Shown here one piece after another: positions 57,001 through 63,000 of a DNA stretch of 64,000 nucleotides. Origin of the DNA: Patescibacteria group bacterium (lineage in GTDB: Bacteria; Patescibacteriota; Minisyncoccia; Phycocordibacterales; JACOZG01); assembly GCA_038058475.1 (NCBI GenBank), contig JBBUAW010000010.1, positions 14,361 to 78,360 of the forward strand, read 5' to 3'. The position numbers were made by a program. Position 1 is the stretch's first letter; each line of letters starts with the position of its first letter.

Positions 57001-60000
57001 TCCACACATTTCTTTGTCTCAATAATATTTTCTGCCAGCGGTAATTTACTCCCGTCAAAAATCACGGCGTCAAAACCGGCTTCCACGGCTTCTTTGACCC
57101 GGTCAAAAGAATAGGTGTGGTCGGCGTTAAGAAAAATCGCCTGCTGAAATTCTTCGCGAACACTTTTAGTCAGCGCTGCGATTTGCCGCACCCCGATAAA
57201 ATCGCGCTCGCCTTCCGAAACGCCGATAATCACCGGCAAGTCTAGTTCGCGCGCGGCGCGCGCAATCGCCCACACGCCTTCAATGTTGGATACATTAAAA
57301 TGTCCAATCGCGATATGTTTGGTCTCGGCTTCAAGGATATATTCTTTCAGGGTTCGCATATGACAGTATTGTAACACAAAAAAATATGTCTGTGATACAA
57401 TGGATAATAATTGCAAAAATTATATGGAACAAAAAACTTTAGATTTTCTGGCGGTTGGTGATATTGTGACCGATGCTTTTATCAGATTAAAAGATGCGGA
57501 ATTACATTGCGATATCAATCATGAACATTGTGAAATTTGCCTGTCTTTCGGCGCGAAAATTCCTTACGAATCGGTGACGGTGGTGCCAGCCGTCGGTAAT
57601 AGTCCGAACGCCGCCGTCGCGGCGGCGCGGCTTGGTCTGCGAGTGGCGTTGGTTACCGATTTGGGTCGCGATTACCACGGCCAAGAGGCGATCGCGACAT
57701 TGGAGAAAAATAAAGTGGAGGCGCGTTTCGTCCGCCGTCATGACGATTGCATCACTAATTATCATTACGTCTTATGGTATGCCGATGACCGCACAATTTT
57801 AATCAAACATGAAGAGTATCCCTATGCTCTGCCGGATATTGGCGAGCCAAAATGGCTTTACTTAAGTTCGCTCGGCGAACATTCTCTGCCCTACCATCAA
57901 TCGCTCGTTGAATATCTGAATGTTCATCCTCAAATTCAACTTGCTTTCCAACCCGGCACTTTTCAAATTAAATTCGGCGTTGAAACTTTGGTTGATATCT
58001 ATCGGCGAACGAACGTTTTTTTGTGTAATTTACCGGAAGCGCAAAAAATTTTAAAACTGGAAACGATGGAAGTGAAAACGCTTTTGGATAAATTACATGA
58101 ACTTGGACCGAAAATTGTCGTGGTTACCGACGGGCCGCGGGGGGCTTATGTTTCCGACCGTCAAAAGATTTTGTTTATGCCACCCTATCCCGACCCCAAA
58201 CCGCCGCTGGAGCGCACCGGCGCCGGCGACGCTTTTTCCGCCACTTTTGTCGCGGCGCTGGCTTTAGACGAATCCGTGGAACGGGCTTTGGCGTGGGCGC
58301 CAATCAATTCCATGAGTGTGGTTCAGCAAATCGGTGCCCAGGCCGGATTACTCACGCGCGAGCAACTTGAACGTTATCTCCAAGAAGCGCCAACGGATTA
58401 TAAGCCGCGAGAAATTTAGATTTTAAACTCCACCACCTCGCCGTCTTGGACAATATAATCGCGACCTTCAATGCGCAACAACCCTTTTTCGCGCGCCGCC
58501 CCATAACTGCCCGCGTTGAGCAATTCCCGCCAGCCGATAACTTCGGCCTTGATAAATTTGTCTCGAAAATCTGAATGAATCGCCGCGCCGGCTTCCGGCG
58601 CGGTCGCGCCAGCGCGAATCGTCCAGGCCCGCGTTTCATCGGCGCCGGTGGTAAAAAAAGTTATCAGCCCGAGCAGTTTATAACTGGCAATAATCAAATC
58701 ATCCAAACCGGTGCCAAACACCGGATCAATTTCAATCACCGGCGCGGTTAATTGCTTTTTGAAATCTAAAACGGCGGTTTCCGCCACGGCGGAAGTATTT
58801 AACACGTAGAGCATCGGCTTGACCGTGAGCAAGTGCAAGTCTGGCGGCGCCTTAATCGCCGGTTGACCTGTTTTTAACTTCTGTTCAATTTCTCCTAATA
58901 ATTTATCTTCCATGATTGTTCCCTCCACTCCCCTTTTTATCTCCTTCCCGAGCGAACCGCGCCGTTTGGTTACGGTTTCTAAATCAGCTAAACAAAGTTC
59001 GGTTATAATTGTTTGGACATCATCTAGCGGGTCAATTTTCCCCGACACATGAATCACTTCTTTGTCTTCAAACACCCGCACGACTTGGGCGATGGCATCC
59101 ACTTCGCGGATATGTGAAAGAAATTTATTGCCCAATCCTTCTCCCTGCGCCGCCCCTTTCACGAGACCGGCAATATCCACAAATTCCACCGCCGCCGGAA
59201 TAGTTTTAGCCGAATGAGAAAATTTGGTTAATTTTTCCAGCCGCTCATCGGCCACGGCCACGACCCCGACCGACTGATCAATGGTGCAAAATGGATAATT
59301 CTCGGCCGGCACGCCTTTTTTCGTCAACGCATTAAAAAGGGTTGACTTGCCGACGTTTGGTAATCCGACGATGCCGATTTTGACGGACATAGTGATAAAG
59401 GTAGCAAAAAACGGAAATATGTGGTAGTTATGGAGTTGGAGTTTTTGGACAAAAACGGACCTTTTACAAAGGAGGTACTGAATGAGTTTAGACTTTTGCA
59501 CGACTGATGGACAAACAAATCACGCTAGTTTCTTATTTCCCCCGACAGAGGGAGTGAATATCGCTGGATGCGAAATCCCGCTTCGTGATTTCCGCCGATT
59601 GTCTACACATTTTCTGTCCGGTGGTTTTTTCGGTTGGGGTGAAGGCGTCAAAACGCCCGAGTCAGTTAATGAAGCCCTGAACTTTCTTTTTGGTATTTAC
59701 GAAAAAATCGATGGGGAATGGACTCGAAAAATCCCAACCTGATAACCCTTTTACCACCAGTCAAGCGCCCGACTATTAGGTCCGGCGCTTTTTTCTTTTG
59801 TTTTAAACAATTTTTCAATGAAAATTATTTATGCTATCCTTCAGTGGGTTTGCGGGCCTGTAGTAAAATGGTATTACATCTCCATGGCATGGAGGAGGTC
59901 GGGGTCCGATTCCCCGCAGGTCCATCGAGTTAGGCGGGCGGCTAGCTCAGTGGCAGAGCGTTCGCTTCACACGCGAAAGGTCAAAGGTTCAATCCCTTTG

Positions 60001-63000
60001 CCGCCCATTTGATAAATTTGGCTAGATTATAGAGCCAGTACCAAGAAGGTTTTGTCACTAAATCATAAAAATCGGAATGAACGACCGGCCGGCCGCCAAA
60101 TCTTTGCTTAAATCTGGTCAGGCCGTGCCAATTTTTGTAAATCTCCCCCATAGCGATGCCGCCAAAATTATAGTCAGTACAACCCAATTTCTTGGCTTGG
60201 CAGATTGCCGCCCATTGGGCTAAATGCGACGCGCATAAATTGCGCTGTTGATTGCTGGAGCCACCAAAAACATAATTAGCCGTTTGACCGAAAACGATAA
60301 TCAAATCAATGACTAGAATTTTATTTTGGTATTTAGCCACGGACAGATAAGTTTTCGGGATGGATTGGAGATTTCGAAAAATGTTTTGATAATATTTTTT
60401 TTCGTGCAAATGAAAGCCGTTTCGGCGAGCTGTTTCGGTCATTAAGTCATAAAAAATTGGGAAATAATCACTGAAATTTTCAGTGACAATTTCCGTGGCG
60501 ATACCCTTGCGGCTTGCCAACTTAATTGAGTATCTGGTTTTCTCGTGCATAGCCGCAAAAATTTTATCTTCCGATTCGGTCAGAGATAAAAACCACTCGC
60601 CGCGCGGTTGGAAATGGGCGGCGTGATAGGTGTAAAGAAAAGATTTTTTGAAGAACTTTTTGAATAACCGTGCGTCAGACGACGGCGGTGTAAAATCCAA
60701 TCTAGTAAAAACAACTCTCTCTCTCTCTCTTGGCAATTTTTAACAATTCAGAGCGAAGGTATGTTAAAAATTGTTCCGAAAAGATTTTTATTACCGGCCC
60801 GTAGGGAGCATAAAAATAACTTAAACGGCGACCGAGTGGATATTTTATCAGTTGGCAATAAGCGATTGGCTCGTCTTTATCACTGATTAGAAATCGTTTA
60901 ACTTCTCGATTTAAACTTTTTTGCCAAAGACCGTAAAACTCAGCTTGGGTGAACGATGTGTTGATAGACAAAGTTAACGGGTCAAATCGTTCGTCTGTTT
61001 TGATTTCGCGAAACGAAAAATTGCCCATCGGTCTAAATTCTACTATAGTGGATGGGTAAAGTAACGGAGTGTGGTGTAACGGTAACATGCACGATTCGGG
61101 TTCGTGTGACTCCGGGTTCAAATCCCGGCACTCCGATTTTGGGTTTGGCGGGCCCATAGTAAAGTGGTATTACGCGGCATTCGCATTGCCGAGGCGCGAG
61201 TCCGATTCTCGCTGGGTCCAAAACGGCTTATGGTGGTAAAAATTAACGAATCGTGGAAAAATGTTTTGGGTGAGGAATTTGAGAAATCCTACTTTCGGGC
61301 ACTGACGGATTTTGTCCGCGCGGAATATTTGTCAACTAAAATTTTTCCGCCGGCGAAATTAGTTTTTAACGCTTTTGAACTCTGTCCCTACGAGGCGGTC
61401 AAAGTGGTTATCCTGGGGCAAGACCCCTATCACGGCGCCGGCCAAGCCGAAGGTTTGTGTTTTTCCGTGCCGGCGCCGACAGCCATCCCGCCGTCGCTGC
61501 AAAATATTTACAAAGAAATCGCCGCCGATGTCGGCGGTCAACCGCCGAACCACGGCCATCTGGAGTCATGGGCGCGTCAGGGAATATTATTATTGAACGC
61601 CACATTGACGGTGCGTGCCGGTGTGGCCGGCTCGCATCAAGGTCAAGGCTGGGAAACTTTTACCGACGCCGTGATTGAGAAAATTTCCCGCACCAAAAAA
61701 AATGTTGTTTTTCTCCTGTGGGGTAATTACGCTAAAAATAAAAAGGGGTTGATTAACGGCCGTCAGCATTTAATTCTGGAGGCGGCGCATCCGTCGCCCT
61801 TTTCCGCCGCCAACGGTTTTTTCGGCTGCCGTCACTTCAGTCAAACTAACGCCTATTTGCAAAAAACCGGTCAGACGCCGATTCAGTGGTTTTAAAAGAT
61901 TTTTTTGCTATAATTATATTGATGGTCTCCGGCATCCCCTGGATTATTTTCTTCGTTGCGATTATTGGCTGGTCAATCTTCAGCGTCGTTTTTCTCTTTC
62001 ATTGGCGACACTACAGCCGGCAATCAAAACCAACCATTCTGGCCGAAATGATTTATTTTGTTGTTTCCATCACTTTGATCGGCTTGATTCTCAATACCTT
62101 AAACTGGAAAGAATTTTATTCTATTTTCTTTAATCAATGATTGATCTAGAACCAAGCGAAATCGTTATCGGCACGGCGCGTAAGCATTGGTTCATTTTCG
62201 TGGTGGAAATATTTTTTATTTTGGCGGCGGCAGTCATTCCCCTATTGATTGTTTTCTTTTTCGCCGACACGTTGGAACAATTTGTTCTGGAGCCGCTGAA
62301 AATCAAGAATCTTGATCAATCGCTTTTGCTTTTTGGTTATTGGCTGTGGCTGCTCATTTTATGGATCGTGATGGCTCTAATTTGGACTGATTATTATCTT
62401 GATGTCTGGTACCTGACCAATCAGAGAATCATTGCTGTTGAGCAACGTGGATTATTTCACCGGAAAATTTCCACTTTCCGGCTGGAAATGATTCAAGATA
62501 CGACGATTGAAATCCCGGGCATTTTGGCGACATTGATCGGTTACGGTAATCTGCAAATCCAAACCGCCGGCCAAAACGAAAAATTCACTATCAGAGGCGT
62601 CAATCGGCCACAGCGAGTTAATGAGATTATCACCAGAGAGTACCATCGCGCGCGTGAGGCTTTGCGTGAAGTGCGAATAGCGGCAGATAATTCGACGGAG
62701 AAAAGCGAGTGGAAATAAAAAATAAAAGATCAACTAGCCAGTACTAATTTTTGTCTGGCAAATACCTTTCGTATTTCTTCAACAAGAACAATCAATATTG
62801 CTACTGGTACGATTACCATCCAGTCAGAAAGGTTAAGTGGGACGGTTTTTAGGAAAATATTCATCACCGGCGTATAGATGGCGAGAAGTTGAAGTGTGAT
62901 GACCGTTACCGTTGCCCATACTAAATATTTATTAGAAAATGGATTCATCCTGAAAATAGACTTATTGTCAGATCGACAATTCCAAGCATTAAACCACTGG

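Follow-up and report, generated by a model that had tools for sequence, protein, structure and literature searches.

The window analysed here is a 64-kb stretch of DNA from an uncultured groundwater Patescibacterium. On its minus strand lies a gene of the FemAB family that is broken in two by a perfect 16-nt dinucleotide repeat, (CT)8 on the plus strand and (AG)8 on the coding strand (Table 1). The coding-strand context at the tract reads ...AAA ATT GCC A(AG)8 TTG TTT TTA CTA G..., with the repeat spanning codons K100-R101-E102-R103 and the first base of V104, and with the 8 units of the window the frame is shifted and a stop follows five codons on. The two resulting ORFs overlap at the tract; the 108-aa N-terminal fragment lacks the invariant residues D110 and K306, and in the 251-aa C-terminal fragment domain 1 is missing its first ~100 residues. 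The N-terminal fragment starts with the ATG at 61028, and the ORF listing and gene callers carry this ORF out to 61157. Two tRNA genes border the gene on the opposite strand, and the antisense overlap between tRNA-Val and femAB is conserved in three species. Gene callers at times read antisense through tRNA-Pro(CGG), giving extended products of 151, 378 or 390 aa. A promoter and terminator scan around the femAB gene gave signals no better than those of shuffled sequence, and tblastn revealed no FemAB paralog in the window.

Table 1. Features at the femAB locus, in window coordinates
Feature	Position	Strand	Remarks
FemX-type (FemAB family) gene, frameshifted, presumed OFF allele	59981..61028	-	PF02388 match of repaired protein; predicted structure; intact form P0001
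(AG)8 repeat, presumably slippage-prone	60715..60730	-	In frame with 6 or 9 units; out of frame with 5, 7, 8, 10 or 11
N-terminal fragment ORF, 108 aa (residues 1-103 + ESCFY)	60702..61028	-	Identical to NCBI MEK7208997.1 / P0121
C-terminal fragment ORF, 251 aa, TTG start just upstream of tract	59981..60736	-	Identical to NCBI MEK7208996.1 / P0122
tRNA-Val(CAC)	59936..60007	+	3' part antisense to last 27 nt of femAB ORF; context, outside the candidate switch
tRNA-Pro(CGG)	61065..61136	+	36 nt upstream of femAB start, opposite strand; context

Comparison of the repaired protein with the Pfam profile PF02388 gave 122.8 bits (E=2e-35; gathering cut-off 24). The N half alone matched profile positions 15-96 with 20.5 bits (E=2.4e-4), which is under the 24-bit gathering score, and the best-scoring stretch of the C half matched positions 300-405. 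Alignments to the solved FemX and FemA structures continued unbroken across the ORF junction. By sequence comparison, the two ORFs thus represent successive, collinear portions of a single FemAB protein, of which P0001 (347 aa, 99% identical) is an intact form. The AlphaFold2 model (pLDDT 94.1, pTM 0.91) showed the two-domain tandem GNAT-like fold of FemX/FemA, and a Foldseek search with this predicted model gave TM 0.80 to FemX 6snr and TM 0.72-0.74 to FemX_Wv entries (E about 1e-19). In the predicted structure, the residues encoded by the tract close helix 85-101 and form the turn that leads into strand 104-109; D110 follows directly after this strand, and K306 lies far downstream of the tract. 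D110, F305 and K306 were invariant in a 46-sequence ortholog alignment with 51 invariant columns. D110 and F305-K306 correspond in the alignment to the FemX_Wv motifs RFD and FKHVF; as catalytic-region residues of FemX_Wv we take the Asp that follows the beta-strand around residue 108 and a Phe-Lys motif around residue 305.

The score against the NCBIfam model NF047883 (FemX_Wv equivalog, UDP-MurNAc-pentapeptide-lysine N6-alanyltransferase) was 40.4 bits, where the cut-off is 500, so the protein is not assignable as an alanyl-transferase equivalog, and TIGR03019 (PEP-CTERM-associated FemAB) gave 38.4 bits against a cut-off of 260. By homology, the gene product is a FemX-like putative aminoacyl-tRNA-dependent transferase that would add an amino acid to the peptidoglycan stem peptide; scores this far below the equivalog cut-offs assign neither that amino acid nor the substrate, for which UDP-MurNAc-pentapeptide and lipid II are candidates.

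The initial annotation had described one FemAB gene split at the repeat into two overlapping ORFs, with the frame restored by one added AG unit and not by one removed. The profile match and the alignments through the junction bear out the split, and in-silico editing of the tract reproduced the frame behaviour: 9 units gave a single ORF, whereas 7 units, like 10, led into the third frame with a stop after ~148 aa. Tracts of 5, 8 or 11 units ran into a stop after 106-110 aa. The proposed restored size of ~355 aa needs correction, since the 9-unit ORF has 349 aa. Nine units is in frame, as the annotation held, but the in-frame length found in nature is 6 units, which it had missed; this form, a single ORF of 347 aa, aligns to 45 orthologs without a gap. 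To judge from these orthologs, 6 units is the natural, ancestral in-frame length. As in a simple-sequence-repeat contingency locus, the tract lies in the coding region and a change in unit number shifts the frame.

Nine contigs of the window's organism, all from Hainich groundwater well H43, were compared. Eight units were present in three contigs (the window, L007 and L010; assemblies or records: the window, GCA_964367425.1 and ERZ1292626) and six units in the other six (L001, L004, L005, L006, L008 and L009). Across 5.6-7 kb, the nine contigs showed 0 mismatches once the 4-nt difference in the tract and a run of N in L001 are set aside. L001 was considered as a slightly divergent strain (10 mismatches) and rejected as such, the 'mismatches' being the N run at a scaffold gap. 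Of the sequential filters of a single water replicate, R3, the 0.2 µm one yielded 6 units and the 0.1 µm one 8 units. These contigs derive from replicate filters taken at well H43 in January 2019, each assembled separately (PMC8672522). Public reads covering the H43 libraries are available under PRJEB36505. The proposal that the repeat varies in nature was thereby upheld: in- and out-of-frame lengths occur within one population on an identical background, as in contingency loci.

The predicted 3-, 5-, 7-, 9-, 10- and 11-unit products, alternative starts included, had no exact match among ~15 billion proteins. Only two lengths were found per species, and this protein collection has no record of a ladder of +/-1 unit or of a 9-unit ON allele. 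The only matches of a genome-contig pattern scan for the sequences flanking the tract were chance ones, in unrelated bacteria, and a metagenome pattern scan yielded one new allele-bearing contig (L033), L036 and L037 being duplicates of L011 and L014.

The same tract occurs, in the same codons, in a sister species at 77% identity, with 5 units (out of frame) in 18 distinct contigs and 6 units (in frame) in 6 contigs, and both alleles occur together in one JGI metagenome (Ga0209542). Tract length in this species is completely linked to 4 SNPs that lie within ~120 bp; the 5/6 difference therefore has a single origin and has stayed stable over many samples. Such stable SNP-linked haplotypes look more like a strain-fixed frameshift than like rapid switching. 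When the out-of-frame alleles were set to 6 units, a full-length ORF was obtained in 3/3 contigs of the window's species and in 19/19 complete contigs of the sister species. The initial annotation had named a repeat conserved among orthologs as a check; the sister species has such a tract, kept with differing lengths as in known contingency loci, but the 72%-identical ortholog L003 carries an interrupted AGAAGAGAGAAT at the tract position.

The (AG)8 tract was the sole dinucleotide run of at least 5 units in the 64-kb window, and no other variable repeats were seen there. First-order Markov simulations gave an expectation of 0.02 runs of at least 6 units per 64 kb, and runs of at least 8 units appeared in 0/300 simulations of that length; a tract of at least 8 units exceeds chance expectation. 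Scaled to a genome of ~0.7-1 Mb, the chance rate is roughly 0.2-0.3 tracts of at least 6 units. The tract is made of minority codons (joint probability 0.0011), and all four tract codons are kept in both species (P about 0.06). This codon bias is suggestive of selection on the tract, in an argument that is post hoc and is weakened because L003 already has AGA AGA GAG there.

We give about even probability to the reading that this slippage-prone coding repeat is a candidate mutational ON/OFF switch of the contingency-locus type, with the window carrying the OFF allele. Polymerase slippage on (AG)n, the presumed cause of the length change, would alter the number of units n. Six or nine units would yield the full enzyme (ON), whereas eight would shift the frame and leave the 108-aa stub, which would represent the OFF state because the catalytic region is missing; the 8-unit allele would then be a loss-of-function allele. 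Both 6- and 8-unit cells of the window's species live in the same groundwater, on an otherwise identical background, and the sister species has its own independent 5-unit OFF allele beside a 6-unit ON allele. The switch would control whether the FemX-type cell-wall modification is made. It could be reversible, through a change from 8 to 9 or from 8 to 6 units, and might bring a selective benefit such as escape from bridge-specific lytic enzymes or phages.

A strong rival, to which we assign a considerable probability short of even, is one-way loss, in which (AG)6 is simply the most mutable site of a gene that these aquifers make dispensable and the 8- and 5-unit alleles are young pseudogenes, segregating or fixed in strains, with no selected or reversible switching. 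The SNP-linked sister allele fits this well, being a single-origin haplotype that is constant in 18 distinct contigs and was assembled more often than the intact allele, as does the restriction to two lengths per species with no 7- or 9-unit product. The 6-unit ON tract (12 bp) is also short for a contingency repeat, which speaks against a switch. In the sister population the gene carries 15 nonsynonymous and 6 synonymous SNPs, a pattern that weak constraint could produce, although so small a number of sites does not distinguish relaxed from purifying selection. Against loss, the polymorphic residues fall outside the invariant columns. The family is otherwise strongly conserved, with ~118 of the best 120 matches at full length in addition to the 51 columns invariant among 46 sequences. 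Further against simple decay, two independent frameshifts arose in the same tract in two species at different sites, both at high frequency, and a second lesion was found in 0/22 complete OFF contigs. Contigs of the window's species with the OFF and the ON allele are otherwise identical over 5.6-7 kb, and the event was therefore either very recent or recurrent.

It is improbable, in our estimate, that the 8-unit allele is still expressed, either by recoding (a -2/+1 ribosomal shift or RNA-polymerase slippage) or as a two-piece enzyme made from the 108-aa and 251-aa fragments. Read from the sequence, a 2-nt shift on (AG)n gives the same codons again and keeps codon-anticodon pairing, but the hallmarks of programmed ribosomal frameshifting were absent: no stimulatory RNA structure was detected downstream of the tract (fold z = -0.26), the locus has no Rfam elements apart from the tRNAs, and a single frame runs through each of the 45 aligned orthologs and through the 6-unit alleles, so the frameshift is not a conserved feature. 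The OFF alleles of both species would need the same shift from tracts of differing length, which is expected of mutation and not of design, and we know of no evidence that establishes dinucleotide transcriptional slippage as a mechanism. For a two-piece enzyme, the break falls in the helix-to-strand turn of the predicted structure, a TTG start codon is found shortly before the tract, and the pieces are annotated at NCBI as separate proteins. No Shine-Dalgarno motif precedes this internal TTG; this says nothing against initiation, because such motifs are rare in the organism (3/58 long ORFs). The least probable reading is the sequencing, assembly or consensus error that the initial annotation had offered as an alternative, with the true genome in frame. 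Contig coverage is low (about 5-7x per the contig names) and dinucleotide repeats are prone to PCR stutter, but stutter usually changes one unit and the difference here is two, and the 16-nt tract is below typical assembler k-mer sizes. Since 8 units occur in three assemblies or records and 6 units in six others that are otherwise identical, such an error is effectively excluded. In the sister species, the 5-unit allele and the SNPs linked to it fit within one read length, and the allele is therefore a real haplotype. This alternative is thus largely refuted.

To our knowledge, repeat-slippage phase variation is almost confined to host-adapted pathogens and commensals, where it mostly affects adhesins, LPS or capsule enzymes and restriction systems. 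CT/AG dinucleotide repeats underlie phase variation of sabA/sabB in Helicobacter pylori. They also mediate translational phase variation of H. pylori oipA/hopH and hopZ, in which the tract, like the one described here, lies inside the 5' part of the coding region, slipped-strand mispairing alters the number of units and places the gene in or out of frame, and both states occur among natural isolates (PMC11124246). The H. pylori tracts, however, sit where adhesin genes encode the signal peptide, in a pathogen adapted to its host, and their switching is experimentally documented, with many lengths. The present tract instead lies ~100 codons into a cytoplasmic enzyme gene, with two lengths per species known from assembled sequences. 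Within the Candidate Phyla Radiation (CPR, Patescibacteria), Sieber et al. 2019 described a hypervariable 9-mer repeat gene in a Gracilibacterium, with slippage-attributed population variation in metagenomic data; unlike the tract here, it is an in-frame 9-nt array (PTD tripeptide) that varies protein sequence and length (PMC6851277). That gene is unrelated to femAB and is not a frameshifting ON/OFF tract.

The protein shares its family (PF02388) and fold (TM 0.72-0.80) with Weissella viridescens FemX and Staphylococcus aureus FemX/FemA/FemB. Like FemX_Wv it is compact (~335-350 aa) and lacks the long helical arm of FemA, and as in known Fem proteins the Asp after the post-tract strand and the C-terminal F-K motif are invariant. 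It differs from them in sequence, with only 18-21% identity and scores far below the NCBIfam equivalog cut-offs. A literature search found no report of repeat control of the W. viridescens or S. aureus Fem genes, and the open-access literature offered no precedent for phase variation of Fem/interpeptide-bridge enzymes or of any gene in Patescibacteria/CPR, which is weak evidence of absence.

The mechanism would be a classic one; what appears to be new is its lineage (Patescibacteria) and its target (a peptidoglycan-bridge enzyme). Somewhat less likely than not, in our estimate, is the wider claim that the tract is a selected contingency locus kept across two species and aquifers at two sites, and that it is the first SSR phase-variable gene in the CPR and the first repeat-controlled Fem-type cross-bridge enzyme. 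If so, ultra-small, probably episymbiotic cells would hedge their bets against phages, lytic enzymes or hosts by switching their cell-wall chemistry back and forth. A switchable gene would let minimal-genome Patescibacteria generate surface heterogeneity inside clonal populations, and would suggest that selection on cross-bridge chemistry fluctuates, for instance under pressure from phages or lysins or through host attachment. For annotation, MEK7208997.1 and MEK7208996.1 are the two halves of a single gene, and the label 'hypothetical protein' on the N half should be read in that light.

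A perfect (AG)n tract splits the FemX-type femAB gene of the window into two minus-strand ORFs that overlap at the tract, as the initial annotation had described, and the coding strand at the break reads ...AAA ATT GCC A(AG)8 TTG TTT TTA CTA G.... In silico tract editing gave a single ORF of 349 aa with 9 units and of 347 aa with 6 units, a stop after 106–110 aa with 5, 8, and 11 units, and a third frame with a stop after approximately 148 aa with 7 and 10 units. The earlier prediction that one extra unit repairs the frame and one fewer leaves it broken was thus correct, although the repaired protein, at 349 aa, falls short of the predicted length of about 355 aa, and the frame is also repaired by taking away two units (8 to 6), which had been missed. 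No other dinucleotide run in the 64 kb window reaches 5 units; per 64 kb, 0.02 runs of at least 6 units and none of at least 8 units were expected from first-order Markov simulations.

Coordinates of features in the window and of the recombinase on contigs of the sister species (the relative with a 77% identical femAB protein)
Feature	Position	Strand	Description
Perfect (CT)8/(AG)8 tract	60715–60730	(AG)8 on minus	read from sequence
N-terminal ORF	60702–61028	minus	108 aa counted from ATG at 61028
C-terminal ORF	59981–60736	minus	251 aa, TTG start
Upstream extension of N-terminal ORF	61029–61157	minus	ORF listing and some gene callers
tRNA cluster around femAB	59854–60007 and 61065–61220	plus	opposite femAB
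Overlapping short tandem repeats	48102–48179		18-nt unit ×2.7 and 13-nt unit ×3.2 (Tandem Repeats Finder)
Large serine recombinase	L021 1–1387, L022 1–1387, L025 1–330		sister species, beside tRNA-Ala(CGC)/tRNA-Pro

The repaired protein matched Pfam FemAB (PF02388) with an E-value of 2e-35, the N half covering profile positions 15–96 and the best-scoring stretch of the C half covering 300–405. Alignments with the solved FemX (6snr), FemA (1lrz), and Weissella FemX pass unbroken through the junction, and the two ORFs are therefore collinear parts of one FemAB protein, as proposed. An AlphaFold2 model of the 6-unit form, with an alignment of 46 orthologs as input, had a mean pLDDT of 94.1 and TM scores of 0.72–0.80 to FemX structures. 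In this model, the tract-encoded residues K100–R103 form the end of helix 85–101 and the turn into strand 104–109, which is directly followed by the invariant D110; an invariant F305–K306 motif lies close to the C terminus. Neither D110 nor F305–K306 is present in the 108-aa product encoded by the 8-unit allele, and domain 1 of the 251-aa ORF is missing its first approximately 100 residues. NCBIfam equivalog scores were far below the cut-offs and therefore assign neither the amino acid added nor the acceptor substrate. A tblastn search of the 64 kb window found no femAB paralog.

Protein searches returned more than 240 homologs, nearly all of 335–360 aa and many from Patescibacteria/Parcubacteria MAGs. 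The top match (P0001; 99% identical, intact, 347 aa) is the exact 6-unit product. Its 90% cluster contained both intact proteins (347 aa, and 378 and 390 aa from upstream starts) and split ones (108, 151, 189, and 251 aa), among them MEK7208997.1 and MEK7208996.1 (NCBI), which belong to a MAG labelled 'Patescibacteria group bacterium'. In the cluster that follows (77% identical), intact 348-aa proteins were likewise found together with fragments of 115, 203, and 250 aa. The 6-unit form aligned without gaps at the junction to 45 orthologs (KRERVVFTRLDF versus the consensus KxENAVFVRLDF), which identifies 6 units as the canonical number for an intact frame; a 9-unit tract would add two residues in the turn. 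The in-frame (ON) form by 9 units put forward earlier works in silico, but the orthologs and P0001 point to 6 units (347 aa) instead. Upstream extension, which lengthens the N-terminal ORF to 151 aa and intact alleles to 378 or 390 aa, yields products read antisense through tRNA-Pro and is best regarded as an annotation artefact, the ortholog start being an MGNFSF-type methionine. One homolog (P0056; NCBI, 279 aa, 70% identity), called without its first approximately 70 residues, reads KIAERERVIF where the tract would lie, possibly a further stretch rich in AG/GA.

Both tract lengths were found in the window's species in Hainich groundwater well H43. Eight units occur in the window and in homologous contigs L007 (GCA_964367425.1) and L010 (ERZ1292626, Hain_H43_01um_R3), and 6 units in L004 (ERZ1292635, H43_02um_R3), L008 (ERZ1292632, H43_01um_R2), L001 (ERZ1292638), and L005, L006, and L009 (Logan ERR3858135, ERR3858118, and ERR3858133). 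All of these contigs equal the window across the full overlap, up to 7 kb, apart from 4 nt of tract length and, in L001, a run of N. The well was sampled once, in January 2019, as triplicate water passed through 0.2 µm and then 0.1 µm filters, with separate sequencing and assembly for each filter (PMC8672522); the H43 libraries belong to PRJEB36505. The 6-unit L004 (0.2 µm, R3) and the 8-unit L010 (0.1 µm, R3) thus place both alleles on sequential filters of one water replicate, each consensus being a draw from a mixed population at approximately 6x coverage. Typical assembler k-mer sizes exceed the 16-nt tract. The presence of both lengths on identical sequence in replicate R3, the two-unit difference, and the shortness of the tract leave practically no room for an assembly or stutter error, and the alternative of an assembly or consensus error raised by the initial annotation was not borne out. 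A naturally segregating tract-length variation that turns this FemX-type gene off is well supported, with high confidence that the variation is real and no artefact.

The sister species, whose data set is probably from an aquifer (Rifle) judging by the contig names ANAN16 and JGI Ga0209542, has the same codons, with (AG)5 in 18 distinct contigs and (AG)6 in 6 contigs, and both lengths are present in the single JGI metagenome Ga0209542. Tract length is completely linked to four SNPs within approximately 120 bp, beyond which SNPs are shuffled between the 5- and 6-unit classes; the linkage indicates that the 5-unit allele is a real haplotype of single origin. Among L002 and L011–L033, the SNP blocks flanking the tract occur in differing combinations from contig to contig, a pattern indicative of recombination or of chimeric consensus sequences built from co-occurring strains. 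The femAB SNPs comprise 15 nonsynonymous and 6 synonymous changes, too few sites to part relaxed from purifying selection, and the invariant columns of the ortholog alignment are free of them. Setting the tract to 6 units restored an uninterrupted full-length ORF in 3/3 out-of-frame (OFF) contigs of the window's species and in 19/19 complete OFF loci (17 distinct contigs) of the sister species.

AAG, GAG, and AGA account for 19% of Lys, 30% of Glu, and 14% of Arg codons, respectively, in the window's genome, and the post hoc probability from codon usage of K-R-E-R being spelled AAG AGA GAG AGA is 0.0011. Retention of all four tract codons between the two species has a probability of approximately 0.06 at the gene's average codon retention, also post hoc. 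Though post hoc, these values suggest that the repeat did not arise as a side effect of codon bias. The 72%-identical ortholog in L003 has an interrupted AGA AGA GAG AAT at this position, so the perfect tract is specific to the two closest lineages; L003 also shows that the local ancestor was already AGA-rich, which weakens the codon argument.

It is plausible, with about an even chance of being correct, that the locus is a reversible phase-variable switch under selection: the tract-length variation that turns the gene off, as the switch proposal had it, is present, but fast switching is not seen in the sister species, where haplotypes are stable and SNP-linked and the 5-unit allele is constant across many samples, unlike the signature of fast switching. 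The stable haplotypes fit a one-way loss of the gene in which the tract is simply a mutational hot spot, the serious rival, of appreciable but less than even probability, as does the lack of 7- and 9-unit alleles, whose products were not found by exact look-up in the protein collection. Against pure decay stand the frameshifts that hit this tract independently in each of two species and are frequent in both, the identical backgrounds in the Hainich population, and the otherwise strong conservation of the gene family; moreover, no OFF allele carries a second lesion.

Two further explanations, in which the 8-unit allele would still be productive, are together very improbable. Recoding on the repeat would be eased by its period, since a 2-nt shift would preserve codon–anticodon pairing, but no structure was detected downstream of the tract (z = -0.26), RNA family searches returned four tRNAs alone, and the orthologs are single-frame genes. 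Assembly of a two-piece enzyme from the 108-aa and 251-aa fragments fits the position of the cut in a turn, and the bare TTG start is not disqualifying because Shine-Dalgarno-like motifs are hardly used: a 4-mer at -20 to -4 precedes 3/58 long ORFs (at least 150 aa, whole window), and initiation in this organism apparently does not rely on them. Positive support for a two-piece enzyme was lacking.

The variation at femAB corresponds in mechanism to classic slipped-strand translational ON/OFF variation, with H. pylori oipA and hopZ, both CT-dinucleotide switches (PMC11124246), as the closest systems. Full-text literature searches turned up neither a case of ON/OFF phase variation by repeats in Patescibacteria/CPR nor a Fem or interpeptide-bridge enzyme that is phase-variable. 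The nearest CPR case, an in-frame 9-mer hypervariable array in a Gracilibacterium (PMC6851277), keeps the frame, whereas the femAB tract shifts it.

The tRNA setting was compared in the window, L001, L003, L004, L011, L012, L021–L023, and L029. tRNA-Ala(CGC) and tRNA-Pro(CGG) lie upstream of the femAB start and tRNA-Val(CAC) and tRNA-Ala(GGC) at its end, where the ORF runs antisense over the 3' part of tRNA-Val with its final 27 nt (..KWAAKGLNL*); both the arrangement and the overlap are shared by three species with protein identities as low as 72%. Fem enzymes use aminoacyl-tRNAs, and Weissella viridescens FemX uses Ala-tRNA; the two tRNA-Ala genes flanking femAB may or may not be a coincidence. 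The large serine recombinase, present in some contigs of the sister species, has Resolvase, Recombinase, and Zn_ribbon_recom domains, and its end overlaps tRNA-Ala. Other sister-species contigs (L012 and L023) and the window's species have a uracil-DNA glycosylase at the recombinase position, a pattern that suggests a strain-specific element integrated at the tRNA gene in the sister species.
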